Of a stretch of DNA of 64,000 nucleotides, positions 16,620 through 63,462 are shown piece by piece; within the stretch, counting starts at the first letter, position 1, and the number at the start of each line of letters is the position of its first letter. The notes under the pieces are model-generated. The model was not told the DNA's origin, did no database searches, and saw only the letters and a list, made by a program, of their open reading frames with translations. The DNA lies in NCBI GenBank assembly GCA_964643435.1, contig CAZXPY010000001.1, positions 74,802 to 138,801 of the forward strand, given 5' to 3'. Both the position numbers and the translations under genes were made by a program. Origin of the DNA: an uncultured Gammaproteobacteria bacterium. Lineage in GTDB: Bacteria; Patescibacteriota; Microgenomatia; Woykebacterales; RBG-16-39-9b.

Positions 16620-16664
16620 TTTGATAATCTAATTGTTTTATACTTGCCGCCAATTCTTAATAAA

Positions 16665-17666: not shown

Positions 17667-17673
17667 TTTTAAA

Positions 17674-23802: not shown

Positions 23803-23803
23803 A

Positions 23804-24517
23804 ATGGAAGAGATGTATTTTTCAGTAGTTGTACCAACGTATAATGAAGAAAAAAGAATTGAAAATACTTTAAGAGAAATATATAAATATTTTGCCAAGA
23901 GGGGAAAAAATTTTGAGGTAATAGTGATTGATGATGGAAGTAGCGATGATACAGTTAGACTCTTGCAGGATTTAAAAAAGAAGTTTAAGAATTTAAAAAT
24001 TTTGAAACAGGGAAAAAATTATGGTAAGGGTTGGGCGGTAAAAAGAGGTGTATTGGCTGCAAAGGGAAAGTATATTCTTACTAAAGATGCCGATCTTTCA
24101 ACACCAATGACCGAAACCGATAAGCTTCTAAAAGAATTAGAAACTGGTGCTGACTTAGCAATATCCTGTCGAATTCATCCCGACGGTACTGATATGAGGT
24201 TCAGCCAACCCCTAATTCGAAGAATAGTTGGCAAAATATTTTCAAAGCTAGTAAATATTTTCGTTATAAATGGAATTAAAGATACTCAAGCCGGTACTAA
24301 AATGTATAAGGCGAACGCTGCTAAAAAACTGTTCCGAAAGCAAAAAATCAAAAGAATCGCCTTTGATGTTGAAATTTTATATTTGGCGAAAAGAGCGGGT
24401 ATGGGAATTGCTCAAATCCCGGTTATGTGGTCAACTGACGGAAAGTCCAGGCTACGATTTTTTAAAGAATTAAGAGTTTTGTGGGATATTTTTACCATTA
24501 AGCTTAATCACAAATGA
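23804..24517 (+). CDS. GT2 polyprenyl-phosphate hexose synthase (Dpm1-like)
   Basis: VVVPTYNEEKRIENTL, IDDGSSDDT, DADLS. The ATG at 23804 is preferred over the track start 23753, because the upstream stop is at 23800-23802. Confidence 0.75.
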   Translation: MEEMYFSVVVPTYNEEKRIENTLREIYKYFAKRGKNFEVIVIDDGSSDDTVRLLQDLKKKFKNLKILKQGKNYGKGWAVKRGVLAAKGKYILTKDADLSTPMTETDKLLKELETGADLAISCRIHPDGTDMRFSQPLIRRIVGKIFSKLVNIFVINGIKDTQAGTKMYKANAAKKLFRKQKIKRIAFDVEILYLAKRAGMGIAQIPVMWSTDGKSRLRFFKELRVLWDIFTIKLNHK

Positions 24518-51431: not shown

Positions 51432-53036
51432 ATGCAAAAAATTTTGAACGCTAGTTACGAAAAAGCTTTTTATATTATTCTTTTTATAGTAACAGTTATT
51501 TTCTTAAAAATTAACTCCACCTATAGTTTTATTGGAAGGGGAGATTACGCAAATTACGCTACTGTGGCAAGAAATTTAGTTGTAGGTCGTGGGTTTACGG
51601 TTGATTTTATTGCCCAATATTTTATTCCCTACGAGAGCGTTCATCACCCGGAAGATATGTGGCCACTGCTTCAGAGCGTATGGATGGCGGCTAGCTTTTT
51701 AATCTTCGGTGTTAATCAATTTTCGGCGAGACTACCAAACGTCATTTTTCTTGCTTTTCTTTCGTTAGCTTCATATTTCATCGCTAGAAAGCTATTTAAT
51801 AAACAAATCGCTTTTTGGGCAGGAATATTAACTCTCCTAAATACAAACCTAATTCTTTATTCAACCGAACTAATAACCAGCGATGTTGCTTTTGCGGCCT
51901 TTTCATTGATAATTTTCTACTTGGGTTCATTGCTTATTATTGAATTAAGAGATGGAGGAACAAGTTACAAAAAATTCTTTCTTTTCGGAATATTGAATGG
52001 TTTAGCGGTTTTACAAAAACCCCTGGCTATTATTTATTTGCCCCTTTATTTAGTTATTTTTGCAATTGTCGCTCGCAAAAAAATAAAACTAATTTTTAAA
52101 CCAGTTGTTTTTTCTTTGATCGGAGCTTTAATTTTTACCGCACCATTTTTTATAAGAAATTTAAGATTATTTGGAACATTTCTGCTACCAGTCGAAAACT
52201 ACCTTTCCTACCTGATTAAATACACCCCTTACGAAGCTATCTTTAGTATTTACTATGATAAGTTACCTTCGTTTAGGACAGCTCTGGAGGGAGGTTTTAT
52301 TAATTTCTTAAAGATTAATTTCACCTATTTTCGGTTTGGAGTAGATACTTTTGTTTATAAAGACTTGTTAATTCCTTATACAGTAATAGTTTTAAGTTTA
52401 TTGGGAATTGGTATTTTAAAAACTAGAGAGCAGAAGTCTTTCTTTTTCACGCCAATAATATTTTTTTTAATTTTTTCGGCGGTTATGACTTTTTATTGGC
52501 ACTACGAATCTCGTTATTACGCCTCGTTTATCCCACTTGCTAATATGTTGGCTGTATACGCTCTTTTTGTCTTTGTTGAAAAGTTTTCAAATCCTTCGAA
52601 GGTTATTATTATCGTAATTTTAGCTTTAATTACTTTTCTGCCAAGTATTAAATCAATTTACCTTGGACTGGGTAAAAAACCAATTGATCCTTCCTTGAGG
52701 GCATATGAATGGATTAGAGATAACACACCAAAAGAAGCGGTAATTTACGGTTTAGGACCTTGGGAACTCCACTATCATTCTGAAAGAGCAGCGCTAATGA
52801 TACCATACAATGGGTTCGGGGACATTTTGTATATGGCGAAAAAACATCAGGTTAATTATCTTGTCCTTGAATTTTTGAAAGAAATAAAACGTCCCGCTCT
52901 TGAAGATTTATATACAGGCAAAGAAACCGAAGTTTTCAGCCGTATTTATCAAGATCCAGAAAAGGTGCTTATTTACAAAATTAATTGGGAAAAAGTTAAT
53001 CTGGAAAGCTATCCAAAACCAGAATGGTTCAAATAA
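51432..53036 (+). CDS. GT-C membrane glycosyltransferase, ArnT/PMT_2-like (GT39/GT83)
   Basis: ..DMWPLLQSVWMAASFLIFGVNQFSARLPNVIFLAFLSLASYFIARKLF.. matches the ArnT/PMT N-terminal loop-TM signature; 534 aa. Confidence 0.6.
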   Translation: MQKILNASYEKAFYIILFIVTVIFLKINSTYSFIGRGDYANYATVARNLVVGRGFTVDFIAQYFIPYESVHHPEDMWPLLQSVWMAASFLIFGVNQFSARLPNVIFLAFLSLASYFIARKLFNKQIAFWAGILTLLNTNLILYSTELITSDVAFAAFSLIIFYLGSLLIIELRDGGTSYKKFFLFGILNGLAVLQKPLAIIYLPLYLVIFAIVARKKIKLIFKPVVFSLIGALIFTAPFFIRNLRLFGTFLLPVENYLSYLIKYTPYEAIFSIYYDKLPSFRTALEGGFINFLKINFTYFRFGVDTFVYKDLLIPYTVIVLSLLGIGILKTREQKSFFFTPIIFFLIFSAVMTFYWHYESRYYASFIPLANMLAVYALFVFVEKFSNPSKVIIIVILALITFLPSIKSIYLGLGKKPIDPSLRAYEWIRDNTPKEAVIYGLGPWELHYHSERAALMIPYNGFGDILYMAKKHQVNYLVLEFLKEIKRPALEDLYTGKETEVFSRIYQDPEKVLIYKINWEKVNLESYPKPEWFK

Positions 53037-53762
53037 ATGAGAAATCAATCCCTTTCGATAATTGTCCCTGTCTTTAACGAAGAATCAAGAATAGAAAAGG
53101 CAATAAGCGAATTAGAAAAATATCTTTCAGGTCAAAATTTTTCCAGCCAAGTAATTTTTGTTGACGACGGGAGTAATGATAAAACTTTGAAAAAAATAAA
53201 AGAGCTAAAACCGAAACTCTATTTTGAGGTAATTTCTTATAAACCTAACAGGGGAAAAGGTTATGCTATAAAACAAGGAGTAGCAAACGCACGTGCAGAT
53301 TATCTTCTCTTTTGTGATGTAGATATGTCGACACCTCTTAATGAATTTAATAAATTTCTGCCTTTTATTAGGAAAAAAATACCGGTTATTATTGGAACTA
53401 GGAAAGCCGCGGGCGCAAAAATAATAAAAAGACAACCATATTTGCGTCAGAAAATGGGGGAGGTCTTTACAATGCTTTCTAATATTTTGTTGCGCAGCAG
53501 TGTCAGTGATTTTACCTGTGGGTTTAAGTGCTTTTCTAGAAGAGCAGCCGAGAAAATCTTTTCGCTCTCTACTATTAATCGTTGGTCCTATGACAGTGAA
53601 ATTCTATTTCTCGCCAACAAGCTTGGGTTTAAAATAATAGAAGTTCCGGTAGTTTGGAAAAATGATAGTCGGACAAAGGTTAATTTAACTAAGGATATTA
53701 TCCAATCTTTTACTGATTTACTAAGAATTAGATTAAATGATAGGTTGGGACATTATGATTAA
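53037..53762 (+). CDS. GT2 polyprenyl-phosphate sugar synthase (Dpm1/ArnC-like)
   Basis: SIIVPVFNEESRIE, VDDGSNDKT, DVDMS. Confidence 0.75.
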   Translation: MRNQSLSIIVPVFNEESRIEKAISELEKYLSGQNFSSQVIFVDDGSNDKTLKKIKELKPKLYFEVISYKPNRGKGYAIKQGVANARADYLLFCDVDMSTPLNEFNKFLPFIRKKIPVIIGTRKAAGAKIIKRQPYLRQKMGEVFTMLSNILLRSSVSDFTCGFKCFSRRAAEKIFSLSTINRWSYDSEILFLANKLGFKIIEVPVVWKNDSRTKVNLTKDIIQSFTDLLRIRLNDRLGHYD

Positions 53763-55065
53763 GAAAATTACCAAAAAAGAGTTTCTATTCCTTCTTACCC
53801 CCCTTGTTTTAGGCGCAGTAATTCTCTTTTTTAAACTTGGTAGTTTATTTCAAAATTTAAATGGAGATGAATATGCTTTTTTGCTGATCTCAGAACAGTT
53901 AAAAGGGGAACCATACTTACCATATCTCATCTGGCCTAAAGATTTGGGTTCAACTCATACTTTATTGCCCTATTTAATACAAATACCGATAGCTTTTTTT
54001 GGAATAACTAATTTTGCGGTTCGGTTTATTCCCGCTCTATTTGGATTATTGGGAATAATTACCTTTTATTTACTTTTACGCAATTTATTTGAAAGTTCCC
54101 AGATAGCCTTTATCGGAGCTACTTTACTAGCACTAACACGTTGGTACTTTACTATATCCAGATTAACCTACGAATTATCAGAAATGCTTTTCTTTGCCAT
54201 AGCTAATCTGTTATTTTTAGTTTTGTTTTTAAAAGCAAAAGACGAAAAATTTAAATTTAAAAATTTAACTGTTAAAAAGAGCTTTGTATATGTTTTTCTT
54301 GTTGGTCTGACTTTAGGTCTTCTGCAACACTCTTACGCGGCAGCAAGAATTTACCCTTTTCTTTATCTAATATTATTTATTTTTTACTTTCTTTATAAAA
54401 GGAAAAAATTTTTAGAAAACGTGATAAATTTTTTTCTTTTTTCAATCGCTTTTTTAATAATTATCTCTCCTTTAATTTATGTTTGGCTCAAACACCCAAA
54501 TGCTTTTGATGCCCGTGGTGCAGAACTCGTTTTTGCCCAAAACCTCTCTTTTAATGATTTAATTTGGTCGCTGAAACAATCTACTTTACGCACTTTAGGG
54601 ATGTTTCAGCTAAGAGGAAGCGATGTTAGTTGTTATAATCTTCCGAACCTGCCGATGCTTGACCCTTTAAGCGGTTTTCTTTTCCTGGTGGGATTAATCT
54701 TATCTTTTACTACTCTTAGACCGGTATATTCTTTTGTATTTCTGGCTTTTCTACTTTTTTCACTGCTGCCAAGCATTTTAAGCTACTGGCCAGCCACTCC
54801 GCAAGGATTGCGGGCTGCTGGCTCAATCGTTCCAATTGTTTTGTACACGACAATTGGGTTAGAAACTGTGGCTAAACTTTTTAAAAAGTATTATATTCAC
54901 ATCATTGTTGTGGTTATTTCAGTAATTGCGATCGTTAATTTACAGATTTATTTCAGATATCAACCGCAGTTACAAGATGATTGTTTTAAATCTAAAGTAG
55001 AAAATTTTGAGGACTTCAAAAAACACTTTCTTAAAGAAACCGGCAGTGTTAAATTTATAAGATGA
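53737..55065 (+). CDS. GT-C membrane glycosyltransferase, ArnT/PMT_2-like
   Basis: ..NGDEYAFLLISEQL.. ..PYLIQIPIAFFGITNFAVRFIPALFGLLGIITFYLLLRNLF..; 442 aa. Confidence 0.5.
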   Translation: MIGWDIMIKKITKKEFLFLLTPLVLGAVILFFKLGSLFQNLNGDEYAFLLISEQLKGEPYLPYLIWPKDLGSTHTLLPYLIQIPIAFFGITNFAVRFIPALFGLLGIITFYLLLRNLFESSQIAFIGATLLALTRWYFTISRLTYELSEMLFFAIANLLFLVLFLKAKDEKFKFKNLTVKKSFVYVFLVGLTLGLLQHSYAAARIYPFLYLILFIFYFLYKRKKFLENVINFFLFSIAFLIIISPLIYVWLKHPNAFDARGAELVFAQNLSFNDLIWSLKQSTLRTLGMFQLRGSDVSCYNLPNLPMLDPLSGFLFLVGLILSFTTLRPVYSFVFLAFLLFSLLPSILSYWPATPQGLRAAGSIVPIVLYTTIGLETVAKLFKKYYIHIIVVVISVIAIVNLQIYFRYQPQLQDDCFKSKVENFEDFKKHFLKETGSVKFIR

Positions 55066-56165
55066 AAAATTTGATTAAGTTATCAACTCCAATTATTGGT
55101 AAGGAAGAAATAAATGGAATAGCAGCAGTTTTGAAGAATGGTCAAATCTCCCAAGGTCCTTACGTTGAAGCATTCGAAAGAGAGTTTAGTCGCTTTGTTG
55201 GTGCGAAATATGCGGTCGCGGTTTCTTCGGGAACAGCCGCTTTGCATCTAACCCTTTTAGCCTTAGATATAAAAAAAGGCGACGAAGTTATAACGACTCC
55301 TTTTTCTTTCATTGCCACAGCAAACTCTATTACTTACACCGGTGCCAGGCCAGTATTTGTAGATATTGACGAAACTTTCAACCTTAAACCTGGTTCTGTT
55401 GAAAAGAAAATTACAAAAAATACAAAAGCAATTTTGGTGGTTCATCTTTTTGGTTTACCAGCGGATATAAAAACTATTAATAAAATTGCCAAAAAATACA
55501 ATTTAAAAATAATTGAAGATGCCTCTCAGGCTCACGGTGCAAAAATTGGTAATAGATATATTGGAACTTTTGGTAACGCCGCTTGTTTTTCCTTTTACGC
55601 GACTAAGAATATTACTACTGGCGAGGGCGGTATGGTTGTAACTAACGAAAAAAAATTAGCGGAAAAAATTAGGAACTTAAGAAATCATGGTCGAAACAAA
55701 AAGGGACAGTATTCTATTTTGGGTTATAATTTTCGAATGAACGAAATACAAGCAGCATTAGGGTCCGCTCAATTGAAAAAACTTAAAACCAATAATCACC
55801 AAAGAATAAAAAATGCAATTTATTTAAGTAACTCTTTAAAAGATATCAAAGGAATTATTTTACCGACAGTTCCTGGCGGATTCACTCATGTTTTTCACCA
55901 ATACACACTAGTAGTAACCCCCCTAGTAAAAAAGACAAGAGAAGAAATCGTAGAATCAATGAATAAAAGTGGGATTGAAGTGGGAATTTTCTATAATCCG
56001 CCTATCCACAAACAACCTCTTTACAAAAAATTAGGCTACAGAGATAAATTACCAGTTGCTGAAAGATTTTCAAGAGAAGTTTTATCATTACCAATCCATC
56101 CTTTAATTACTAAAAAAGATCTGGATTATATAGCGAGATCTTTTAGGGAGTCTTTAAATGAATAA
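55062..56165 (+). CDS. DegT/ArnB/WbpE-like PLP-dependent sugar aminotransferase
   Basis: ..AVSSGTAALHL.., ..CFSFYATKNITTGEGGMV.. (Lys of the internal aldimine); 367 aa. Confidence 0.8.
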   Translation: MKNLIKLSTPIIGKEEINGIAAVLKNGQISQGPYVEAFEREFSRFVGAKYAVAVSSGTAALHLTLLALDIKKGDEVITTPFSFIATANSITYTGARPVFVDIDETFNLKPGSVEKKITKNTKAILVVHLFGLPADIKTINKIAKKYNLKIIEDASQAHGAKIGNRYIGTFGNAACFSFYATKNITTGEGGMVVTNEKKLAEKIRNLRNHGRNKKGQYSILGYNFRMNEIQAALGSAQLKKLKTNNHQRIKNAIYLSNSLKDIKGIILPTVPGGFTHVFHQYTLVVTPLVKKTREEIVESMNKSGIEVGIFYNPPIHKQPLYKKLGYRDKLPVAERFSREVLSLPIHPLITKKDLDYIARSFRESLNE

Positions 56166-57084
56166 GATTTTAAGGTTGGGAGTTGTTGGTGTTGGTTCAA
56201 TTGGCAAAGAACACGTCCGGATCTTAAGTAAGTTGAAAGATTGTGTGCTGGTAGGTATCGTGGATACGGATCAACAACTCGCGGCGGTAGTTGCTGAAAG
56301 ATTTTCAACGCGCCGGTTTAAAAAACCCGATGATCTCTTTGCCCAAAACATTGACGCAATTAGTATTTGTACTCCGACCTCATCCCATTTTAGAATAGCG
56401 CGAACGGCTATTGAGAAAAATATCCACTCTTTAATTGAAAAACCAATAACAAAAACTATTTCTCAAGCTAAGAAACTAATAGATCTAGCCGAGAAGAAAA
56501 AATTGAAGCTTATGGTTGGATACGTTGAGAGATTTAACCCAATCGTAGCGGTTATAAAAAGAAGAATAAAAGGGGAAACGGTCATATCGATTAATTTCAC
56601 GCGAGTCGGGCCTGTCCCACCGAAAGTAGGCGATATTGGCATTACTTTGGATTTGGCAACTCACGATATTGATCTTTTAAGATATTTATTAGAGACGGAT
56701 TTTAAAAAAATTAAGTCTGTTTCTTCGACCCAAAACAATCGTGAGGATGCGGCGGTTCTTAGCTTTAAATTGGGCAACGGAACAATTGCTTCAATTGTGA
56801 CGAATTGGTACACTCCTTATAAGGTTAGAAAAATAGAAATAGCCACAAAAAATAAATTCATTGTTGGCGATTTTATTTTACAAGAAGTTCACGAGCATTA
56901 TAATTACAAGGTGGGTGGAACATATTCTACAAAAGTAATACCAGTGAAAAAAACCGAACCCCTAAAAGAAGAGTTAAAAGCTTTTGTTGAGTCCATAAAA
57001 CTAGATAAAATTACAAAAGTTACTGGCGAAGATGGTTTAGAGGCTTTAAAAATAGCCGTAAGATGTACAAAGTTAGCTTCTTAA
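56158..57084 (+). CDS. Gfo/Idh/MocA-family NAD(P)-dependent sugar oxidoreductase (WbpB-like)
   Basis: LRLGVVGVGSIGKEH Rossmann motif; EKP motif. Confidence 0.7.
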   Translation: MNKILRLGVVGVGSIGKEHVRILSKLKDCVLVGIVDTDQQLAAVVAERFSTRRFKKPDDLFAQNIDAISICTPTSSHFRIARTAIEKNIHSLIEKPITKTISQAKKLIDLAEKKKLKLMVGYVERFNPIVAVIKRRIKGETVISINFTRVGPVPPKVGDIGITLDLATHDIDLLRYLLETDFKKIKSVSSTQNNREDAAVLSFKLGNGTIASIVTNWYTPYKVRKIEIATKNKFIVGDFILQEVHEHYNYKVGGTYSTKVIPVKKTEPLKEELKAFVESIKLDKITKVTGEDGLEALKIAVRCTKLAS

Positions 57085-57783
57085 GGCAAATAAAAGCATA
57101 TCTTTGATAGAAGCAAAAACTAGCTTAAAATTAAGCTGACTTGGGTTTTCTTTAGGGTAATGAACAACCGGAACGCTAGCGATTTTAGAACCGGCCCTAC
57201 TTGCTTTAATAAGTCTTTCGCTTTCAGCAAAAACGCTTGTAGATTTAATATCTAAACTTTTGTAAATATGAGATTTTACTAGTTTTGCACAGCCAGCATC
57301 ATGAACCTCAACACCAAACAGTAGTTTTGTAAAGAAATTAAATCCCCAAGACACAAATTTCCGCCCTAAATTGTATTTTTTTACTTTCCTTTTCGCAACA
57401 ACAATATCAAAACCCTCTTGCATTTCTTTCATTAAAGAGGGAAGAATTGACATCTTAATCTCATTATCAGCACCATTAAAAAAAGTCAGATTTCCTTTAG
57501 CCCCAGAATAAAGATCTTTTAAACTTTCTTCAATTCCAAAGTTTTTAATATGGTTAATAATTCTTAGTTTTGGATATTTCTCTCTTAATTTTGATAAAAT
57601 TTGCGGTGTTTTATCGGTGCTGCCGTCATCTACCACTAAAATCTCATAATTGTTAGTTAGTTTTGATGCTTCTTCGTCAGCACTTCTAATAGATTCACTT
57701 ATGTTTTCTTCTTCGTTATAAGCTGGAATTGCGATGGTTAAAGATAAATTTTTCTTCATAAAATTTGCTAAAATCGGAGACAC
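57073..57783 (-). CDS. GT2 polyprenyl-phosphate hexose synthase (Dpm1-like)
   Basis: LTIAIPAYNEEENIS, VDDGSTDKT. The true start may be the internal Met (MKKNLS..), which would reduce the overlap with the HAD gene. Confidence 0.7.
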   Translation of the reverse strand: MSPILANFMKKNLSLTIAIPAYNEEENISESIRSADEEASKLTNNYEILVVDDGSTDKTPQILSKLREKYPKLRIINHIKNFGIEESLKDLYSGAKGNLTFFNGADNEIKMSILPSLMKEMQEGFDIVVAKRKVKKYNLGRKFVSWGFNFFTKLLFGVEVHDAGCAKLVKSHIYKSLDIKSTSVFAESERLIKASRAGSKIASVPVVHYPKENPSQLNFKLVFASIKDMLLFALRS

Positions 57784-58402
57784 TTTCTAAAACAAGATCA
57801 GCACCAGCCGCAGTTAATTCTTTTTTATTTCCTACCCCCGTTAATACCCCTATTGTAAAAGCACCGGCACTTTTACCAGCTTTTATATCATAAGGGTGGT
57901 CTCCAATAACGATTATTTCTGAAGGTTTCAGATTTAATTTATTAATTGCAAATATTATTCCCTCAGAACTGGGTTTGGGGTTTAAAACTGTTTCCCGTCC
58001 TACTAATACATCAAAGGGTTCTAAATTGAATTTATCTAGAGTCGTTTTTATTGCCATTTCAGAAGTTCGAGAAAATATACCTGTCATAATATTTTTACTT
58101 CGTAAATACTCTAGAGTTTGTTTAGTTCCAGGAATAAGAGTAGCCTCTTGAGAGGCTAGACATTCTTCTTCTGTAAGTATTTTAAGCGCCGCTTTCTTTA
58201 AATCTTCGTTTTCAGCTAGGCTCTTTCTCTCAAGCGCAACTATTGCGTCGTTTATTTTTTGTAAAATTGGTTTAAAATTAAAGTCCTTGGGCAATCCTCT
58301 TTCAGCGAAAAACGCCCTCACCCTTTCTCTAATTGATTCAAGGTCAATTCGTATTCTTACTAAAGTGTTTTCAAAATCAAACAAAATTAGTTTGACCGAC
58401 AT
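57716..58402 (-). CDS. HAD-superfamily phosphatase (phosphoglycolate phosphatase / beta-PGM-like subfamily)
   Basis: Motif I LILFDFENTLV; motif IV IVIGDHPYDIKAGKSAGA. Confidence 0.7.
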   Translation of the reverse strand: MSVKLILFDFENTLVRIRIDLESIRERVRAFFAERGLPKDFNFKPILQKINDAIVALERKSLAENEDLKKAALKILTEEECLASQEATLIPGTKQTLEYLRSKNIMTGIFSRTSEMAIKTTLDKFNLEPFDVLVGRETVLNPKPSSEGIIFAINKLNLKPSEIIVIGDHPYDIKAGKSAGAFTIGVLTGVGNKKELTAAGADLVLESVSDFSKFYEEKFIFNHRNSSL

Positions 58403-58409
58403 AATTTAA

Positions 58410-59465
58410 TTATATCTCCGTAAAGGTCCATTTATTGTTTTTGATCATAACTGGACCACCGTCTGGAATTCTAACCCAATAAATATCAGCTGGAGTGTTA
58501 TTTATTAATGAAACGTTTGGTATTCGCTCGCCATAAGCTAATTTTACAAATATCAGTGGCATATTAATTCCGATAGTAGAAAAAAATAATGAAGTAGTAA
58601 AAAACCTTCCTGGATTAACTTCTGTTACACAGGGAATACCAGATTTATTCTCCTTTGTGTCTACAACGTAAATACCGTTTGGCTTTGAATCTAACGTTTT
58701 TACAGTATCGATAGCTATTTTATTTACGCGATCATTATGAACTGTTTTTTGTATCGCTGTTGTGCCTGTTACTCCACTTGGAGAAAGCCCAGATTGTACC
58801 CATTCTAACCTCTCTTTACCCTGTGAACATATCAACTTCCCCTTATACCAGATGCTCACCCAAGATACCTCTCGACCATCTAATTTTTCACTGGCTAAAA
58901 AATTTCCCCACCTTAAACCTCTATATGACCAATAATTTACCCAAGCCTTTGCTGACTCAAAATTATCAACCGGTAAACTGGCTCGACCACCAGCACCTCT
59001 ATTCGCTCTTAGCCAAACAGTACCATCTATTTCTATAAAGACCTCCTTGAGGGAAACCTCATCTGATAATTTAAAAGTTTTAGCGACAGGCACCCTTGCT
59101 TTTTCAAGAGTTTGGTAAGTCAACCATTTATCCTGGCTTATATTTATGGCTTTTTTCGAGGGAAGAAATACTTTGGCGTTTAACTTCTGCCGGTAATCAG
59201 AAATTATCTTAACTTCTGGATCTGGTTGTGCATGAATAAATTCAATATCTTCAAGTTCGATTACTTTATTAATTTTATTAATATAGTTTAGTTCCTCACC
59301 TTTTTTGTGCCTAATTAAATATCTCTTATCAACCGGAGACATCTCCAGATAATACTTATTTGTGTCAGCACCAACAATTTTTATCTTCTCTTTCGAGAGT
59401 CTTAATGACTTTATAAAATTTATTCCTGCTGACCCGCCGCAGCCAAGAACTAATATTTTTTTCAT
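58410..59465 (-). CDS. ATP-grasp family ligase (carboxylate-amine ligase-like)
   Basis: About 351 aa; N-terminal MKKILVLGCGGSAG; central Gly-rich loop and C-terminal ..VTEVNPGRFF.. are consistent with the ATP-grasp fold. Confidence 0.5.
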   Translation of the reverse strand: MKKILVLGCGGSAGINFIKSLRLSKEKIKIVGADTNKYYLEMSPVDKRYLIRHKKGEELNYINKINKVIELEDIEFIHAQPDPEVKIISDYRQKLNAKVFLPSKKAINISQDKWLTYQTLEKARVPVAKTFKLSDEVSLKEVFIEIDGTVWLRANRGAGGRASLPVDNFESAKAWVNYWSYRGLRWGNFLASEKLDGREVSWVSIWYKGKLICSQGKERLEWVQSGLSPSGVTGTTAIQKTVHNDRVNKIAIDTVKTLDSKPNGIYVVDTKENKSGIPCVTEVNPGRFFTTSLFFSTIGINMPLIFVKLAYGERIPNVSLINNTPADIYWVRIPDGGPVMIKNNKWTFTEI

Positions 59466-59469
59466 CTTA

Positions 59470-61086
59470 TTACCACAGTTTGTTTTTGTAAGTTATCGGA
59501 ACATCAACAATTGCTGCCTTTTCAGAATTCAAAGCTTTTTTCAAAGTTGGAGTCAAATTCTTAGCTGAATTTACTCTAAAACCCTTACCTCCATAAGCTT
59601 GAGCTAATTTAACAAAATCGGGATTTCGGAAATCAACACCAAAAGAACTACCAAAAGTTTTTTCCTGTTCATACTTTATTATTCCGTAAGAACCATCATT
59701 TAAAATAACCACTGTAATTGGTAAATCATAATTAACCGCAGTTATGAATTCTGAAGCCGCCATTTGAAAACCACCGTCTCCAACCAGCGCAATTACTCTT
59801 TTGTCTTTATTTAAGAGCTTAGCGGCAATTGCTCCCGGTAGAGAAAAACCCATCGCTGATTGACCGTTTGAGAAGTTAATAGTTTTAGGGTATAAGGCTT
59901 CAAAAAATAAACCCATATATTGCTTATGCTCACCAACATCAACAATAATTATATCTTGGTTATCTAATAAAACTCTAAGTTTTTTAATCAAGTTTAAAGG
60001 ATCTATTGGAAAATCTTCTTTACTAAACTTATAATTTTTTGGATCGAAACGATGAAACGGTAAGTATTTATACTTTTTTGGCGTGAGATTAGAACTATTT
60101 ATTTTTTTAAAGAAGTATTTATAATCGCAAACTATATCAATATCTGGTCGATAAAATTTCTGCCCTGTTCTGGTTGAAGTATCAATATTTATTATCTTTT
60201 TCCTTATACCTTCACTCCATATCTTCGGTTTTATTCCCTCTGCGTAATCGTAACCAATATTGATAAGGAGATCTGATTTTCTAATGCTTTCAGCGGTTTT
60301 TGGTAGGTGGCGGCTTAGCACACCAAGATATAGGGGATGGTTCGAGGGGATTGCACCTTTCCCTTGGAAAGTTGACAAAGCGTATATATTAAACTTCTCC
60401 ATAAATTTTATAAGTTCATTAGTGGCGTTTTGACGAATCACTGCCCCGCCAACTAAAATAATCGGAAATTGAGCCCTTTTTATTTCTTTAATTACCGATG
60501 AGATATTGGGAAAATTTTTCTTTTGCCGATTGATTTTAGAAGAAATTTTTATCCTTGAATTAAAAGGGTTATCTAAGATATCAACTGGAAGGACAATATG
60601 AACAGGTCCTGGTCTTTCTTCTTCCGCAATCTTAAAAGCTAACTGTAACTTCTGAGGTATTTCACTAACGTGTTCTATAGTCGTTTGAAATTTTGATTTA
60701 TGGGAAAATTCCTTTTTCATATCAATGAATTGGTGAGTATCAACGTGCCAGGCAGTTTTTGGTAGTTGGCTAGTTATGCAGACGAGAGGGGAACGATCAG
60801 AATGAGCATTTTTAATTGCTGTACCAATATTTGTGGCTCCGGGTCCTAGGGTTGTATAGCAAACCCCGGCTTTGCCGGTTAACCGCCCATAAACATCAGC
60901 CATAAAACCAGCAGATTGCTCATGAGTAGTTCTAATAAACCTAATTTTTGAGGATTTTTTTAGCTCTTTAAAAAAAAGAGCTTCGGCAGTCTTACCTTTG
61001 TTATCTTTAGTATCTCCAGGTATGCCAAAAATATATTTGACCCTAAGTCTCTCTAAAGTTTTTACTAGTAATACCGCTCCATCCAC
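59470..61086 (-). CDS. Thiamine diphosphate-dependent enzyme, acetolactate synthase large subunit-like
   Basis: N-terminal PYR domain (..YIFGIPGD.., ..HEQSAGFMADVYGRLTGK..GVC..T.GPGATN); C-terminal PP domain with ..GDGGFQM.. ThDP-Mg motif. Confidence 0.8.
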   Translation of the reverse strand: MDGAVLLVKTLERLRVKYIFGIPGDTKDNKGKTAEALFFKELKKSSKIRFIRTTHEQSAGFMADVYGRLTGKAGVCYTTLGPGATNIGTAIKNAHSDRSPLVCITSQLPKTAWHVDTHQFIDMKKEFSHKSKFQTTIEHVSEIPQKLQLAFKIAEEERPGPVHIVLPVDILDNPFNSRIKISSKINRQKKNFPNISSVIKEIKRAQFPIILVGGAVIRQNATNELIKFMEKFNIYALSTFQGKGAIPSNHPLYLGVLSRHLPKTAESIRKSDLLINIGYDYAEGIKPKIWSEGIRKKIINIDTSTRTGQKFYRPDIDIVCDYKYFFKKINSSNLTPKKYKYLPFHRFDPKNYKFSKEDFPIDPLNLIKKLRVLLDNQDIIIVDVGEHKQYMGLFFEALYPKTINFSNGQSAMGFSLPGAIAAKLLNKDKRVIALVGDGGFQMAASEFITAVNYDLPITVVILNDGSYGIIKYEQEKTFGSSFGVDFRNPDFVKLAQAYGGKGFRVNSAKNLTPTLKKALNSEKAAIVDVPITYKNKLW

Positions 61087-61189
61087 AATTAAAGAAAAAT
61101 TATAGCAACGCTACGTTAAACTGTCTAGGTTTATAAGCATAGCCTAGTAAGCTTATTGTTAATTTGTTAGTATAGGTAAGTATAAAAAT

Positions 61190-62362
61190 ATGAAAATTTT
61201 GATGATTAATGATAAATACGAAAGTGTTGGTGGTGCCGAAAATTATCTGATTGGGGTCTGCGAAGGCTTAGAAAATTTAGGACACGAGACTTTTGTGATT
61301 TATTCTGAAGGCGGAGCAGTCAGAGCTAAAAGAAAATCTTTTTTTGTTCCAAATTTAGAAATTAGCGAAACTCTAGAAATCATTGAAAGCGAGAAGCCAG
61401 ATATTATCAATTTGCAAAATGTTTTTAATAATGATCTTTACCGGTTGTTACCGAAACTCAAACCGACAGTTAGATACGTCCACGACCACCGAACTTATTC
61501 ACCGGGTTCGGCCAGTATGCATTTTGTTTCAAACCGAATTTGCGAAGCCCCGTTAAGCTGGTGGCACCAGCCAATCTTTGCTTACACAGAGCGTTGTATG
61601 AGCCGTAATCCTATAAAAATTGTTAGGCTAGTTTTAGAGAGATTAGAACTTTTAAAACTCCATAATAACCTACAAAAAATCTTGGTTAATTCAAATTATG
61701 TTAAGAATAGGTTGATTCAAAACGGAGTAAGTGGAGATTTAATTTTTGTATTGCCACCGTTTGTAAATATCCTTCAGGATAAAGTAGTCACAAAATCAGA
61801 AGAACCAATTATTTTGTATGTTGGGAGACTTTTTGTGGAAAAAGGAGTTGAATTTGCTTTCAGGGCTGTTGGGGAGATACCAAACGCTAAGCTTTGGGTG
61901 GTAGGGGATGGTTGGGATAGAAGGCGATTAGAAAAACTAACTTTAAAATTGGGTCTTTCAGAGAGAGTTAGATTTTTTGGGTGGGTTGAAAGAGAAAAAT
62001 TAGGAAAATTTTATAACGAGGCATCACTGACAGTTTTACCTTCAATCTGGCCAGAGCCTTTTGGTATGAGTGGAATTGAGTCTTTAAGCGCAGGTAAACC
62101 GGTTGTTGCCTTCAAGGTTGGGGGAATTCCTGAATGGTTAACTGATAATAAAGTTGGTTTTTTGGTCCCAAGAGCAAACGAAAAAGAGTTAGCAAAAGCA
62201 ATTAAAACCTTGTTAGATAATCCTTCTTTGCGGGATAGATTTGGGAGGTTAGGAAAGAAATTAGTAAAAGAAAAATTTAATAAAGAAGATCATCTCAAGA
62301 AGTTGTTTGGAATATACGAAGAAGCAGTTAAAAATTTTAAAAGCTCATTCGCCACGATTTGA
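61190..62362 (+). CDS. GT4 family glycosyltransferase
   Basis: ..EPFGMSGIESLSAGKPVVA.. Confidence 0.7.
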   Translation: MKILMINDKYESVGGAENYLIGVCEGLENLGHETFVIYSEGGAVRAKRKSFFVPNLEISETLEIIESEKPDIINLQNVFNNDLYRLLPKLKPTVRYVHDHRTYSPGSASMHFVSNRICEAPLSWWHQPIFAYTERCMSRNPIKIVRLVLERLELLKLHNNLQKILVNSNYVKNRLIQNGVSGDLIFVLPPFVNILQDKVVTKSEEPIILYVGRLFVEKGVEFAFRAVGEIPNAKLWVVGDGWDRRRLEKLTLKLGLSERVRFFGWVEREKLGKFYNEASLTVLPSIWPEPFGMSGIESLSAGKPVVAFKVGGIPEWLTDNKVGFLVPRANEKELAKAIKTLLDNPSLRDRFGRLGKKLVKEKFNKEDHLKKLFGIYEEAVKNFKSSFATI

Positions 62363-63462
62363 TGGCCCCTTTTGGTGAGATGTCCATCCTCCGGAAAAAA
62401 TAAAGGAAACTCTTTACCTTCCTTAAAGGTTTTTAAGAAACTAATGAATTCAATATTCTCTTTTTTGGCAAAGTCCTCTAAATCTTCGATATGACGGAGG
62501 GGATAAATTTTGCCGATTCTAAAACCGTGAAATAGGCGACCAGTTGCCCACTCTTTATCAGAAACTTGGTGAGCACTCGGATGGGCTGTTAGTAGGAACG
62601 GAATATTCTCCTTTTTAAGCAACTCTTTTATCAGTAAAAGATGCTTCTCTGGCAAGATAAAAGCCTTTTCATAGTCTTCTGGTTTTTCCTCTCGGGTAAG
62701 CGCAAAAGTATCGTTTCTTATATCTCCTTTGGTATATCCGGGTACCGCTTTACCTAAAAGTCCTTTAATTTTAATTGCGGCAAACAAATAGAATTTTGAG
62801 TTATCGTGTAAGAACTGCTTTATAACTAGCGGTAAAAACGGAATAGTAACTTCTCCGCCGGTTTTGTTTTTCTGATCAAACTCCTTTCTTAAGTTTTTCT
62901 CGGGATCCACTGCAATTGGTTCTCCTTTTTCATTACTAGTTGTGTTCTTTTCATATTCAAGCTCGTTTTGAAAGTCAGTAATATCAAAATCCAAAATTAC
63001 CAAATCGGGTTTTAGTTTCAGTCCAAAGTTTTTTAAATATAAGTATTCTAAAACTGGAGAGTAACTAATAACCCCACCATTAATCACCTCGACGTTTTTA
63101 TATTTTTCGTTGAGTTTATTCTCTAACTTTTTAACAGAGGTCTCTTCTAAATCTACCCCTTGGCCTTCAACAAAAGAATCACCCAGTATTAAGATGCGGT
63201 AGAAGCCCTCGGGTTTAACTTTACTTATTTGCCTATCTCGTAAACCCAGTGAGTTAATTCTATAGTCAATATTCCACTCGGGAGTTACATACTTACAATT
63301 TGAATTTGGTTTTAATTTATGGTGAATTATTTTGTCGCTGCTTCTACATTCGGTTGGTAAAACGGATTTAAATTCTGTTAGGCGGGTGTAAATTTCGGCT
63401 AATAAAAAAGCAGCTAAGAATCCAAAAAATACTAAAAGCAAATTTTGAAAAGCCTTTTTCAC
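62290..63462 (-). CDS. Membrane-anchored SGNH/GDSL-family hydrolase (putative polysaccharide O-acetyl esterase/transferase)
   Basis: N-terminal TM anchor; block I RILILGDSFVEGQG (GDS motif); about 390 aa. Confidence 0.45.
   Translation of the reverse strand: MKKAFQNLLLVFFGFLAAFLLAEIYTRLTEFKSVLPTECRSSDKIIHHKLKPNSNCKYVTPEWNIDYRINSLGLRDRQISKVKPEGFYRILILGDSFVEGQGVDLEETSVKKLENKLNEKYKNVEVINGGVISYSPVLEYLYLKNFGLKLKPDLVILDFDITDFQNELEYEKNTTSNEKGEPIAVDPEKNLRKEFDQKNKTGGEVTIPFLPLVIKQFLHDNSKFYLFAAIKIKGLLGKAVPGYTKGDIRNDTFALTREEKPEDYEKAFILPEKHLLLIKELLKKENIPFLLTAHPSAHQVSDKEWATGRLFHGFRIGKIYPLRHIEDLEDFAKKENIEFISFLKTFKEGKEFPLFFPEDGHLTKRGHQIVANELLKFLTASSYIPNNFLR

Follow-up and report, generated by a model that had tools for sequence, protein, structure and literature searches.

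A conserved eight-gene block in an uncultured bacterium that may make and decorate a 3-amino sugar

What might an enzyme resembling acetolactate synthases (ALS) do among glycan genes? The question is raised by three consecutive minus-strand genes in the window, a stretch of 64,000 nucleotides from an uncultured bacterium. Their positions and families, initially proposed from the sequence only, were confirmed by open reading frames and Pfam: a ThDP-dependent enzyme (538 amino acids, 59470–61086; TPP_enzyme_N/M/C, E-values 3e-31 to 2e-42), a predicted ATP-grasp carboxylate-amine ligase (351 amino acids, 58410–59465; ATP-grasp_3, 1.4e-8), and a HAD-IA phosphatase (228 amino acids, 57716–58402; HAD_2, 7e-27). 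Gaps of 4 and 7 nt separate the three. A short GT2 (57073–57783; Glycos_transf_2, 7e-26) is encoded by a fourth gene on the minus strand, which overlaps the HAD gene. The GT2 is 228 amino acids in an independent gene call (in L001), and its true start is probably at 57759. A minus-strand promoter-like site (TAGACA-17-TATAAT with TG; 61127–61099), with 11/12 matches and an extended −10, lies just 5' of the ThDP start and could conceivably mark the start of an operon; promoter-like sites overall were not enriched over shuffles in the region of the ThDP gene. The full unit comprises eight genes (53737–63462), an extent missed by the sequence-only reading. The plus strand contributes a GFO/IDH/MocA oxidoreductase (GFO, 56158–57084), a DegT-family PLP aminotransferase (DegT, 55062–56165), and a polytopic membrane protein (442 amino acids, 53737–55065), and the minus strand an SGNH/GDSL-like protein with a hydrophobic N-terminus (390 amino acids, 62290–63462).

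Among relatives in the candidate phyla radiation (CPR), the eight-gene block recurs as SGNH | ThDP-ATPgrasp-HAD-GT2 | GFO-DegT-GT-C, flanked by housekeeping genes. The ThDP-ATPgrasp-HAD-GT2 order occurs in L003, L004, L177, L178, and L179 (proteins 40–66% identical), and these genes converge with GFO-DegT-GT-C in L003, L004, L096, L097, and L177–L179. All eight proteins are 38–66% identical to those of the window in L177–L179, where the flanking genes are tRNA-synthetase or mraZ/PBP genes. The ThDP and ATP-grasp genes also adjoin in lineages in which the ThDP protein is just 36–49% identical, including L103 and the archaeon AR10 (L005). With the four-gene order recurring in L003, L004, and L177–L179 and ThDP-ATPgrasp adjacency in distant lineages, the grouping exceeds what chance would give, and the earlier suggestion of a functional unit for a nonstandard sugar decoration is supported. 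Several uncultured bacteria share the eight-gene unit and many archaea share part of it, and it appears to have no published description.

The composition of the unit varies with lineage. The order is HAD-ThDP-HD-ATPgrasp-GT2 in L083 and DegT-ThDP-ATPgrasp in L088/L089, and PIG-L accompanies ThDP-ATPgrasp-HAD in L086 and L101, with NeuB also present in L086. Nine high-GC loci have DegT-GFO-Epimerase_2-ThDP-ATPgrasp-GT2, and HAD was not found in these nine; most archaeal loci have HAD and lack ThDP. ThDP, ATP-grasp, and HAD are thus not an obligate trio, which counts against the N-acylation reading given below. On the amine side, some loci have GFO with DegT and others only DegT, and those in nonulosonic-acid clusters have a PIG-L deacetylase. 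GFO and DegT lie side by side in nearly all relatives examined, and DegT adjoins GFO and ATP-grasp in CPR bacteria, DPANN archaea, and other archaea. A polyprenyl-phosphate glycosyltransferase, either GT2 or a PF00953 enzyme, is always included.

The ThDP enzyme scores highest in NCBIfam against PRK08322 (495 bits, cut-off 509), followed by AlsS (387, cut-off 510) and IlvB (356, cut-off 538), and its top PDB matches are catabolic ALS and then CEAS and BbmA. The proximity of the first score to its cut-off, the name of that family ('acetolactate synthase large subunit'), and the TCA-type contexts of its true members (L085 and L091) speak for ordinary metabolism, in which the enzyme would be a housekeeping acetolactate synthase or 2-oxoglutarate (2-OG) decarboxylase and ATP-grasp and HAD would be unrelated. 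We consider this extremely improbable, as it is already contradicted by context and tree data. The phylogeny, proposed earlier as a check, placed the enzyme in a glycan-linked clade (neighbor-joining tree, 85/100) that is sister to a 2-OG decarboxylase clade (100/100) and is separate from it, distinguished by an indel and by changes in the pocket. In all loci examined, the members of the glycan-linked clade are encoded beside an ATP-grasp gene, an order conserved across distant lineages, and neither an IlvH/IlvN-like small subunit nor an aldehyde dehydrogenase was found in the window. The sequence-only reading had named a two-part outcome that would speak against it; to the first part, a grouping with IlvB accompanied by a small subunit, the separate clade and the lack of a small subunit in the window run counter.

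Catalytic Glu56 and the GDG...ND motif are intact in the alignment. The AHAS-type FAD motif, a second suggested check, is absent, with RFDDR replaced by YDYAEG. An IlvB, AlsS, or YerE-like identity was rejected from the scores below cut-offs and the lack of a FAD motif and small subunit. HKMWMAR is replaced by HKQxxGL in the glycan-linked clade, and the window's enzyme has glutamate in place of the lysine for which a role in binding the distal 2-OG carboxylate has been proposed (MaKGD K471; PMC10418658). The protein is classed as an FAD-independent, ALS/2-oxoglutarate-decarboxylase-like enzyme of a clade specific to glycan clusters.

These results bear on YerE-type branching, the role first suggested for the enzyme, in which pyruvate would be its donor of a two-carbon unit and the keto-sugar of GFO the acceptor, yielding a C-branched sugar, with ATP-grasp and HAD acting elsewhere. 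ALS-like ThDP enzymes can be carboligases, and the neighboring GFO would supply the keto-sugar; in L004, GFO is present and DegT was not found within its 21 kb. An ilvB-like TPP enzyme also occurs in an operon needed for flagellin modification in Shewanella (PMC3765264). However, the sister clade consists of nonoxidative 2-OG decarboxylases rather than carboligases, and the FAD motif is missing. YerE, in contrast, is a flavoprotein. Nearly all other relatives keep DegT next to GFO, so transamination probably consumes the ketone. Branching also leaves unexplained the co-evolution of ThDP and ATP-grasp, whose trees mirror each other, even where GFO is absent (L083 and L086). The proposal is unsupported, and we regard it as very improbable.

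The ATP-grasp ligase has a canonical ATP-grasp fold in an AlphaFold2 model (pLDDT 90.9), and Foldseek with this model returned 2pn1 (uncharacterised), PurK, PurD, biotin carboxylase, L-amino-acid ligases, and PylC. Its top PDB profile match is PurD (2yw2, 3e-11). The second part of the adverse outcome, a housekeeping PurK or RimK, is contradicted by scores far under both cut-offs (16.5 bits, cut-off 318, and 33.7 bits, cut-off 143, respectively); the ligase also scores far under the cut-offs of PurD and LysX. It belongs to an uncharacterised family with PurD as nearest characterised relative; the 853 homologues are mainly from CPR bacteria and archaea, and 233 species genomes, mostly archaeal, have the family.

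In ~70 of 80 loci the HAD gene directly follows the ATP-grasp gene; L044 and P0060 carry them as a fusion. HAD motifs I (DFENT, with Glu at Asp+2), II, and IV are visible in the alignment, and the lysine of motif III was read by eye. In NCBIfam the protein is PpaX/phosphoglycolate-phosphatase-like, with all scores under cut-off, including a weak match to the AHBA-associated phosphatase family TIGR01454 (58 bits). The sequence-only reading had HAD act on a sugar phosphate; following the logic of Campylobacter jejuni, in which the Cj1435 phosphatase acts after Cj1438, an acyl or amine partner would be as likely a substrate.

GFO is probably a UDP-GlcNAc 3-dehydrogenase, matching the archaeal enzyme family NF040723 best (274 bits, cut-off 450), with IolG next (127 bits); its top PDB match is 7bvj (4e-35). 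DegT (Pfam DegT, 4e-131) is probably an NDP-3-keto-sugar aminotransferase. Its PDB matches are 7b0d (2e-88), QdtB (4e-74), 5u1z (2e-69), WbpE (1e-61), and NtdA (4e-50), a ranking that places it closer to NDP-sugar 3-aminotransferases than to NtdA. The 5u1z entry was deposited as a 'putative aminotransferase'.

The ranking weakens a kanosamine-like route, in which GFO, DegT, and HAD would work as NtdC/NtdA/NtdB on a hexose 6-phosphate, ATP-grasp would acylate the 3-amino sugar phosphate as PurD does, and HAD would remove the 6-phosphate to give a free N-acyl amino sugar or small metabolite. NtdC/NtdA/NtdB and RifL/RifK/RifM share the GFO, DegT, and HAD family composition, the TIGR01454 match points the same way, and PurD acylates the amine of a sugar phosphate (phosphoribosylamine). 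The nucleotide-sugar type of both GFO and DegT, the invariable polyprenyl-phosphate glycosyltransferase, which needs a nucleotide sugar, and a UDP-GlcNAc 2-epimerase in L105 make the route rather improbable, slightly less so than branching. L105 also encodes a small membrane protein (123 amino acids) after GT2.

Our best explanation, to which we assign a probability of about 0.42, is that 53737–63462 is a self-contained cassette that makes, decorates, and exports a 3-amino-HexNAc. From the observed gene linkage, family placement, and block conservation, we infer the enzymatic steps by homology and context. GFO would oxidize UDP-GlcNAc at C3 and DegT would turn the ketone into an amine, giving UDP-GlcNAc3N. 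The PurD-like ATP-grasp would then stand in for the usual WbpD-type acetyl-CoA transferase, converting a small carboxylic acid, 2-oxoacid-derived or phosphorylated, to an acyl phosphate and coupling it to the 3-amino group. The ThDP enzyme, with its altered substrate pocket, may provide the acid from a 2-oxoacid or decarboxylate a 2-oxoacid moiety after ligation, and HAD may strip a phosphate borne by the acid, much as Cj1435 does after Cj1438. For the archaeal versions lacking ThDP, the leading candidate would be 3-phosphoglycerate, yielding an N-glyceroyl group. The short GT2 may load the finished sugar onto polyprenyl phosphate, and a GT-C-like membrane protein may attach it to an acceptor at the surface; extracellularly, the SGNH protein may add an O-acyl group to it or de-acylate it.

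N-acylation is supported by the partner genes (GFO and DegT, DegT, or PIG-L), which by sequence would make or unmask a sugar amine. Also in its favor are the matches of GFO and DegT to nucleotide-sugar enzymes, PurD, which acylates a sugar-phosphate amine, as nearest characterised relative of the ligase, the intact catalytic residues and altered pocket of the ThDP enzyme, and the Shewanella operon as a precedent. The resemblance of GT2 to ArnC/PgfS, the PMT_2 match in L177, and the small membrane protein of L105 speak for export. Of the mapped GFO and DegT loci, only L073 has an LbH acetyltransferase gene beside the module. Against N-acylation, neither the ATP-grasp family nor the ThDP clade has a characterised enzyme, which makes the acid, the step order, and the phosphorylated species a matter of guesswork. 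Decarboxylases yield aldehydes, and the ThDP product would be an acid only with a dicarboxylic 2-oxoacid substrate or carboligase action. Also unfavorable are the GFO and GT2 scores under cut-offs, the lack of DegT within the 21 kb of L004, and the LbH acetyltransferase gene of L073.

Alternatively, ATP-grasp could activate a sugar carboxylate (of a uronic acid, or C1 of a nonulosonic acid) and couple a phosphorylated amine to it. A ThDP decarboxylase and an aminotransferase would make this amine from a phosphorylated 2-oxoacid, for example 3-phosphohydroxypyruvate through phosphoglycolaldehyde to ethanolamine phosphate, and HAD would then remove the phosphate. C. jejuni HS:2 follows this logic, with Cj1438 as amidoligase and Cj1435 as HAD phosphatase. 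Downstream of the ATP-grasp-HAD pair in Bathyarchaeia lie DUF354 and a truncated NDP-sugar dehydrogenase-like gene, and neither GFO nor DegT is nearby, a context that fits a uronic-acid substrate and counts against N-acylation; an archaeal polyprenyl-phosphate transferase beside the pair has its best, though weak, score with archaeal MraY, an enzyme that handles peptide-bearing UDP-sugars. On a Clostridium estertheticum plasmid, a 37%-identical homologue has a HisC-like aminotransferase, a kinase, and a histidine phosphatase as neighbors, which suggests a phosphorylated amine partner, again unfavorable to N-acylation. Precedents are the HS:2 glucuronamide, decorated with ethanolamine or serinol according to two reports (PMC11800379, PMC12409886), and threonine amide-linked to C6 of ManNAcA in Methanococcus N-glycans (PMC11407970).

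The sequence-only reading had ATP-grasp amidate UDP-GlcA made by ugd. The ugd gene, which encodes a UDP-glucose dehydrogenase, is indeed in the window (19488–20792; 446 bits against the NDP-sugar dehydrogenase family TIGR03026, cut-off 190, and TuaD-like), a point in favor of amidation, but it lies 38 kb from the ThDP-ATPgrasp-HAD genes, outside the conserved unit, and is absent from L177–L179; the block itself has no sugar 6-dehydrogenase, and its conserved partners are amine-making. Amidation would also leave the 3-amino group uncapped because the block has no acyltransferase. Profile searches gave no match of ATP-grasp to TupA-like PF14305, the family of Cj1438. DegT-family enzymes normally act on NDP-keto-sugars rather than small aldehydes, and the PDB ranking agrees. 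Amidation is therefore the weaker explanation and is unlikely, though less so than the others weighed against the 3-amino-sugar cassette.

The GT2 of the cassette is probably a polyprenyl-phosphate sugar synthase (ArnC/PgfS/PpgS-like), with NCBIfam scores of 68 bits for PgfS and 67.5 bits for ArnC, both far under cut-off; it follows HAD in L004 and L177–L179 (57–61% identity). The membrane protein has no NCBIfam match at E 1e-10. Its translation has many hydrophobic stretches, its homologues occupy the same position in L004, L096, and L177–L179 (44–82% identity), and that of L177 weakly matches PMT_2; it is probably the GT-C-type transferase of the unit. The SGNH protein matches Lipase_GDSL_2 under cut-off (3e-7), and its homologues adjoin the ThDP gene divergently in L003, L004, L178, and L179 (38–43% identity). 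Between the SGNH and ThDP genes, a plus-strand GT4-family glycosyltransferase (61190–62362; Glycos_transf_1, 1e-42) is outside the core block, being absent at this place in L003 and L177–L179; it occurs at the same place in L096 (86% identity) and nearby in L004 (35%).

Three consecutive minus-strand open reading frames occur at exactly the positions that an earlier sequence-only reading had assigned to them. The first (59470–61086) encodes a 538-amino acid protein with all three thiamine-diphosphate (ThDP) enzyme domains, the second (58410–59465) a 351-amino acid protein with an ATP-grasp domain, and the third (57716–58402) a 228-amino acid HAD-family hydrolase. The intergenic gaps are 4 and 7 nt, and the HAD gene overlaps a fourth minus-strand gene, which encodes a short family-2 glycosyltransferase (GT2; 57073–57783). 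On an identical metagenome contig, an independent gene call makes the GT2 228 amino acids long, which implies a start at 57759. Scanning for promoters and terminators yielded nothing informative besides one good −35/−10 match with an extended −10 (61127–61099), just 5' of the ThDP enzyme start; this constitutes weak evidence for a promoter, since such matches are not enriched in the region. The closest named relatives of the three proteins come from Candidatus Levybacteria and Woykebacteria, members of the candidate phyla radiation (CPR). A 92-amino acid plus-strand ORF lies antisense within the ATP-grasp gene (58760–59038) and was taken to be spurious, given that hundreds of homologues conserve the reading frame of the ATP-grasp.

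The ThDP enzyme falls just short of the NCBIfam model PRK08322 (495 bits, cut-off 509). Its scores against catabolic AlsS are 387 bits for PRK08617 (cut-off 510) and 349 bits for TIGR02418 (cut-off 551), and against biosynthetic IlvB 356 bits for TIGR00118 (cut-off 538), with all other IlvB-type equivalogs far under their cut-offs. The best matches in the PDB are catabolic acetolactate synthases (AlsS chains, up to 287 bits), followed by carboxyethylarginine synthase and BbmA. A large protein collection holds only eight close clusters (49–94% identity), after which identity falls sharply to ~40%. The relatives at ~40% form a family of very large size that carries the label 'acetolactate synthase large subunit'. 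In it, one protein from a cyanobacterium is labelled 2-oxoglutarate decarboxylase, an activity documented for cyanobacterial enzymes (PMC5160925, PMC10418658). The two family members whose surroundings were looked up (loci L085 and L091) adjoin genes for aldehyde dehydrogenase, fumarase, and succinate dehydrogenase, as a TCA bypass predicts.

In a neighbor-joining tree that used IlvB, IlvI, Gcl, and PoxB of E. coli for reference and included no AlsS, the window enzyme and every other glycan-cluster-linked homologue form one clade (bootstrap 85/100). Its sister is the clade of the 2-oxoglutarate decarboxylases (100/100), and a wide distance separates the two clades from the E. coli enzymes. Members of the glycan-linked clade keep the GDG...ND motif for diphosphate binding as well as the catalytic glutamate (HEQ). 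Alignment with E. coli IlvI and IlvB showed that the RFDDR FAD motif of acetohydroxyacid synthase (AHAS) is absent, being replaced by YDYAEG in the window enzyme and throughout the clade, with a one-residue insertion (YDYxEG) at this spot. The intact catalytic motifs and the missing FAD motif suggest a catalytically intact and probably FAD-independent 2-oxoacid enzyme. The gene is flanked by those of the ATP-grasp and a GT4, and a tblastn search of the whole window with E. coli IlvH and IlvN found no small subunit (best E 0.66). Identity as IlvB or AlsS is ruled out by the HMM scores together with the missing FAD motif and missing small subunit. Genes of this clade that are labelled 'acetolactate synthase large subunit' almost certainly encode something else, and the label should be treated with caution in annotation.

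The closest family is that of the 2-oxoglutarate decarboxylases OgdA/SynPCC7002_A2770 and MaKGD (PRK08322), with ~40% identity and the same three-domain, FAD-independent architecture. However, the window enzyme has lost basic pocket residues of these decarboxylases (WKQ to YEQ, MAR to xGL) and has no succinic-semialdehyde dehydrogenase neighbor; indeed, the whole window encodes no aldehyde dehydrogenase. Across the glycan-linked clade, HKMWMAR is changed to HKQxxGL and the cyanobacterial WKQ to YEQ or HEQ. The latter change removes the equivalent of MaKGD K471, a lysine put against the distal carboxylate of 2-oxoglutarate by docking rather than by a solved structure (PMC10418658). Assignment as a 2-oxoglutarate decarboxylase was rejected, since the enzyme falls in its own clade, its pocket is changed, and an aldehyde dehydrogenase is lacking; judging from the pocket residues, 2-oxoglutarate itself is probably not the substrate. 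The idea that the ThDP gene is confined to organisms lacking ilvB was dropped: several DPANN loci have no ThDP gene, and the high-GC carriers, found on contigs of up to 434 kb, are assumed to have genomes of ordinary size. Members of the CPR clade carry an insertion of ~8 residues (DTKDNKGKTAEALFF) right after the PGD motif of the N-terminal domain (residues about 26–38), which is missing in all other relatives.

The ATP-grasp gave only marginal matches in a direct sequence search of the PDB. A profile built from 20 members of its family matched PurD best (2yw2, 3e-11) and then 2pn1, an uncharacterized structural-genomics protein. Foldseek, run with an AlphaFold2 model (pLDDT 90.9), matched 2pn1, PurK, PurD, biotin carboxylases, L-amino-acid ligases, and PylC about equally well. 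Neither the profile nor the Foldseek search found a close characterized relative, which leaves a generic placement among ATP-grasp ligases. PurD (glycinamide ribonucleotide synthetase) is the best characterized relative by profile and fold, and couples glycine to an amine on a phosphorylated sugar, the kind of small-acid ligation that we propose below for the ATP-grasp. Unlike PurD, the ATP-grasp gene is not in a purine context, and the two proteins are only ~16% identical. Assignment as PurK, PurD, RimK, or LysX was rejected (16.5, 19.3, 33.7, and 27.9 bits against cut-offs of 318, 288, 143, and 276, respectively), and a plain housekeeping role for the genes is excluded for practical purposes. 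Pfam assigns ATP-grasp_3 and a weak PylC-like_N, to which homologues add ATPgrasp_Ter and CPSase_L_D2; TupA-like PF14305 matched neither the window protein nor its homologues. The family has 853 matches in the protein collection and relatives in at least 233 species-level genomes, of CPR bacteria and above all of archaea (Bathyarchaeia, Methanomethylicia, Jordarchaeia, Aenigmarchaeota, Micrarchaeota, and Nitrosopumilaceae).

The HAD protein is a subfamily-IA phosphatase (TIGR01509, 40.5 bits, cut-off 29.4; TIGR01549, 40.5 bits, cut-off 23.3). It resembles phosphoglycolate phosphatase and PpaX, with the PGP, PpaX, and beta-PGM equivalogs all under cut-off. Motifs I, II, and IV are readable in the alignment, and motif III (Lys) was located in the sequence by eye. 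For motif I, the window and locus L096 have DFENT and locus L177 has DFEDT, with Glu in place of the second Asp, while all other orthologues have DxDxT and most of them DLDGT. The substitution is a conservative one, and Glu at this position is also found in HADs of the enolase-phosphatase type.

We surveyed 80 loci around ATP-grasp homologues (the best 80 of 233) and clustered the neighboring genes. The HAD gene lies directly 3' of the ATP-grasp gene in ~70 of these 80 best-scoring loci, and the two are fused in locus L044 and in the homologous protein P0060. In CPR bacteria, DPANN, and several other archaea, the pair occurs with a DegT aminotransferase and a GFO oxidoreductase, which are 45–55% and 34–51% identical to those encoded on the plus strand of the window at 55062–56165 and 56158–57084, respectively. 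A PF00953 polyprenyl-phosphate sugar-phosphate transferase adjoins the pair in many archaeal loci.

The ThDP gene is no chance neighbor of the ATP-grasp gene, which adjoins it in every locus of the glycan-linked clade that was examined. Seven loci (L177, L178, L179, L003, L004, L096, and L097), with ThDP enzymes 54–58% identical to that of the window (94% in L096), have the order ThDP-ATPgrasp-HAD-GT2, convergent with GFO-DegT-membrane protein. At 49% identity, L083 has HAD-ThDP-HD-ATPgrasp-GT2, and at 42% L103 has ThDP-ATPgrasp-HAD-GFO. ThDP-ATPgrasp is common to L086, L101, and L102 (37–41%), with a HAD and a PIG-L deacetylase in L086 and L101 and a NeuB-type synthase in L086. The order is DegT-ThDP-ATPgrasp in L088 and L089 (ThDP 39%; ATP-grasp 55–57% identical to that of the window), and the two genes also adjoin in L005 of the archaeon AR10 (40%). 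Nine loci from a high-GC bacterium (36%) have DegT-GFO-UDP-GlcNAc 2-epimerase-ThDP-ATPgrasp-GT2-small membrane protein, with no HAD. The HAD is thus a nearly constant third partner, and neither it nor the ThDP enzyme is obligatory. In the ATP-grasp tree, the ThDP-linked members form a basal grade with the HAD-only archaeal ones nested inside, mirroring the ThDP tree. The mirrored trees indicate that the ThDP/ATP-grasp partnership is old, and the ThDP enzyme is apparently the ancestral partner of the ATP-grasp.

These associations bear on the first of two sugar decorations raised by the sequence-only reading, a branched sugar made by a YerE-type enzyme. Like the window enzyme, YerE of yersiniose A biosynthesis and Shewanella SfmB (SO_3262, ilvB-like) are ALS-superfamily ThDP enzymes from sugar-modification clusters. 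YerE is a flavoprotein acting on CDP-4-keto-3,6-dideoxyhexose. Compared with YerE as described, rather than with its sequence, the window enzyme lacks the AHAS-type FAD motif, is partnered by an ATP-grasp, and has neighbors of the UDP-GlcNAc type. YerE-type branching is disfavored by this missing motif, as well as by the placement of the ThDP enzyme beside decarboxylases, its co-evolution with the ATP-grasp, and the conservation of the aminotransferase. The nearest precedent, going by its published description, is sfmB of Shewanella oneidensis, an ilvB-like TPP enzyme gene in the sfmABCDE operon, which is required for flagellin modification; sfmB adjoins a NeuB-domain gene (PMC3765264), as does the ThDP gene in L086.

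In L177 and L178, a tRNA-synthetase gene flanks the block to which the three genes belong; mraZ and a gene for a penicillin-binding protein are further flanking genes in L178. Such housekeeping flanks indicate that the block is a self-contained unit and not merely part of a larger island. On its convergent side, the GFO and DegT genes are adjacent and overlap by 8 nt. The GFO scores 274 bits against NF040723, archaeal UDP-GlcNAc 3-dehydrogenase (cut-off 450), with the next family at 127, and its best solved relative is 7bvj. Among solved structures, the DegT matches NDP-sugar aminotransferases (7b0d, QdtB, 5u1z, perosamine synthase, and WbpE) far above the sugar-phosphate enzyme NtdA; the family library contains no 3-aminotransferase equivalog. 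A kanosamine-like route, in which the amine would be introduced on a sugar phosphate, is disfavored by these family matches and by the ever-present polyprenyl-phosphate glycosyltransferase. The GT2 of the block resembles ArnC, PgfS, and PpgS, under cut-off, and the L177 homologue of the 442-amino acid membrane protein (53737–55065, plus strand) has a weak PMT_2 match.

A GFO 3-dehydrogenase and a DegT 3-aminotransferase act on UDP-HexNAc in GnnA/GnnB, WbpB/WbpE/WbpD, and MMP0352/0351/0350 of M. maripaludis, as the GFO and DegT of the block probably do. Unlike these pathways to UDP-GlcNAc3N and UDP-GlcNAc3NAc(A), the block has an ATP-grasp (with HAD and ThDP enzyme) in place of the LbH N-acetyltransferase step, and its scores are under the equivalog cut-offs. 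No WbpD-type acetyltransferase is present in the block, and among the mapped loci with GFO and DegT, an LbH gene lies beside the module only in L073.

The analysis demonstrates that the genes are linked and the block conserved, and it places the proteins in their families; from this we propose a pathway to an N-acylated amino sugar. The GFO and DegT would convert UDP-GlcNAc to UDP-2-acetamido-3-amino-2,3-dideoxyhexose. The ATP-grasp would then cap the 3-amino group with a carboxylic acid via an acyl-phosphate, as PurD does on phosphoribosylamine, and it is the best candidate for this step because the block lacks a WbpD-type acetyltransferase. By the same logic, the PIG-L deacetylase of nonulosonic-acid clusters would unmask an amine. 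The near-constant phosphatase partner (HAD in the window, an additional HD in L083, a metallophosphoesterase in L086, and a histidine phosphatase on a Clostridium plasmid) points to a phosphorylated intermediate; in the simplest case, a phosphorylated acid from central metabolism would be ligated and then dephosphorylated. Loading onto polyprenyl phosphate by the GT2 would be followed by transfer outside the membrane by the 442-amino acid membrane protein.

Similar ligase-phosphatase logic reportedly operates in the C. jejuni capsule with Cj1438 and Cj1435, the roles of amine and acid being swapped relative to the cassette. In C. jejuni HS:2, an ATP-grasp amidoligase (Cj1438) and a HAD (Cj1435) are likewise paired inside a glycan locus, Cj1436 and Cj1437 supply phosphorylated amines, and in both systems central metabolism would provide a phosphorylated small molecule that is joined to a sugar through an amide and afterward loses its phosphate. 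However, the cassette ATP-grasp is of another family (ATP-grasp_3/PylC_N/ATPgrasp_Ter) than Cj1438, which we take to be TupA-like (PF14305). The cassette also adds a ThDP enzyme, and its GFO and DegT partners would make a sugar amine rather than a uronic acid. The direction of the amide is probably reversed, with the sugar as the amine. Two reports describe the glucuronamide decoration of C. jejuni with serinol and ethanolamine (PMC11800379, PMC12409886).

The main rival to N-acylation is carboxyl amidation in this Campylobacter form, in which a sugar carboxylate would be joined to a phosphorylated amine supplied by a ThDP decarboxylase plus an aminotransferase. Amidation of a uronic acid was the second decoration raised from sequence, and it now ranks as a weaker alternative to N-acylation. 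It draws support from the Bathyarchaeia context of the ATP-grasp-HAD pair, the Clostridium plasmid cluster, more weakly an MraY-like transferase, and the ManNAcA of Methanococcus, which is amidated with threonine (PMC11407970). It is opposed by the lack of a uronic-acid dehydrogenase in the conserved block and by the 3-amine, which amidation would leave uncapped. The cassette parallels GnnA/B or WbpB/E in amination, the Cj1438/Cj1435 type in ligase-phosphatase logic, and the ArnC/ArnT type in export, but belongs to none of these pathways at the decisive steps, as its ATP-grasp family is uncharacterized and its ThDP clade is separate and mis-annotated as acetolactate synthase.

The Bathyarchaeia context (L014, L021, L061, and about 40 other loci) has the order ATPgrasp-HAD-DUF354-truncated NDP-sugar dehydrogenase, with or without an SDR. 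The dehydrogenase-like protein is ~289 amino acids long and lacks the UDP-binding domain. This uncharacterized cluster starts with ATP-grasp-HAD and is always 3' of the same housekeeping genes (DUF2110 and others). The Clostridium cluster (L176; C. estertheticum plasmid NZ_CP086250.1, 227617–236210) has a 37%-identical ATP-grasp annotated as a carboxylate-amine ligase, along with two radical SAM proteins, an SDR, a HisC-like aminotransferase, an aminoglycoside-phosphotransferase-like kinase, a histidine phosphatase, and an epimerase. It is the only ATP-grasp match from a cultured organism and a possible experimental handle.

Under N-acylation, the identity of the acid would differ among modules. 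In archaeal modules without a ThDP enzyme, an attractive candidate is 3-phosphoglycerate, which would yield an N-glyceroyl group. The N-glycan of Methanoculleus marisnigri is described, in the citation of Kelly et al. 2022 in PMC11407970, as having 2,3-diaminoglucuronic acid whose N-acyl groups come from acetate and glyceric acid. For the cassette of the window, the ThDP enzyme would use 2-oxoacid chemistry to provide or modify the acyl group. More speculatively, it may decarboxylate a moiety derived from 2-oxoglutarate with the distal carboxylate already engaged, which would fit both its ancestry and the loss of the basic pocket residues. In one scenario, the ATP-grasp could attach 2-oxoglutarate, a by-product of DegT, through its distal carboxylate to the 3-amino group, and the ThDP enzyme, without residues to bind that carboxylate, could decarboxylate the tethered 2-oxoacid. 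CPR surface glycans would then bear an N-acyl group not seen before (4-oxobutanoyl or a cyclized form). We consider it unlikely, at roughly one chance in seven, that this clade contains the first ThDP decarboxylase or carboligase to act on, or solely for, an acyl group tethered to a nucleotide sugar. In a broader form of the proposal, the ATP-grasp and HAD would be the long-missing installers of N-glyceroyl-type groups on archaeal and bacterial amino sugars.

Unusual N-acyl and amide groups on amino sugars and nonulosonic acids affect antigenicity, phage recognition, and S-layer and flagellin function. For many of them (glyceroyl, glycolyl, hydroxybutanoyl, and aminoacyl), we know of no identified installer. 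The cassette is a plausible candidate for installing such N-acyl groups in archaea and uncultured bacteria, and one that is concrete, widely distributed, and directly testable. If correct, this would give a function to an uncharacterized ATP-grasp family and a new ThDP clade, could account for the N-glyceroyl 2,3-diaminoglucuronic acid of M. marisnigri, and would provide a first look at the surface-glycan chemistry of uncultured CPR bacteria. A literature search found no published link of an ALS-like ThDP enzyme with an ATP-grasp and a HAD in a glycan cluster, nor of the ATP-grasp with glyceroyl groups or UDP-GlcNAc3N.

Several further features of the block and its surroundings were observed. 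An SGNH gene (62290–63462 in the window, minus strand) lies 5' of the ThDP gene in L003, L004, L178, and L179. In the CPR relatives L178 (3540–6800) and L179 (3684–6901), a NodU/CmcH-type carbamoyltransferase (~592 amino acids) and a small ORF adjoin this SGNH gene, which hints at O-carbamoylation of the same glycan; the equivalent position is beyond the window end (64000). In the high-GC cassette, a strongly hydrophobic 123-amino acid membrane protein is encoded 3' of the GT2 (L105, 9897–10268). Its size and position are compatible with an ArnE/ArnF-type flippase subunit that handles amino sugars linked to polyprenyl phosphate.

The window overall is a ~54-kb low-G+C glycan island. It encodes RmlA-type and SDR enzymes, GlmS, UDP-glucose dehydrogenase (19488–20792), UDP-GlcNAc 2-epimerase, two Wzx-like flippases, many GT2 and GT4 enzymes, and several GT-C-type membrane proteins. 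Directly 5' of glmS (GATase and SIS domains) is a CofD/YvcK-family gene (Pfam CofD, 298 bits; 16644–19440 for the two). YvcK (GlmR) of Bacillus binds UDP-GlcNAc and stimulates GlmS, and the two genes may therefore constitute a GlmR-GlmS pair within the island. Sets resembling three-component glycosylation systems occur at 9521–10633 (GT2-GtrA fusion at 9521), 21718–26070 (YfhO at 21718, GT2 and PMT_2 at 23753 and 24514), and 51432–53762 (PMT_2 and GT2 at 51432 and 53037), which suggests that several different sugars are added extracytoplasmically. Two large minus-strand ORFs, at 37913–40033 (706 amino acids) and 47364–49175 (603 amino acids), have no Pfam match at E 1e-5; the latter is 48% identical to a homologue from L004, a syntenic CPR locus.
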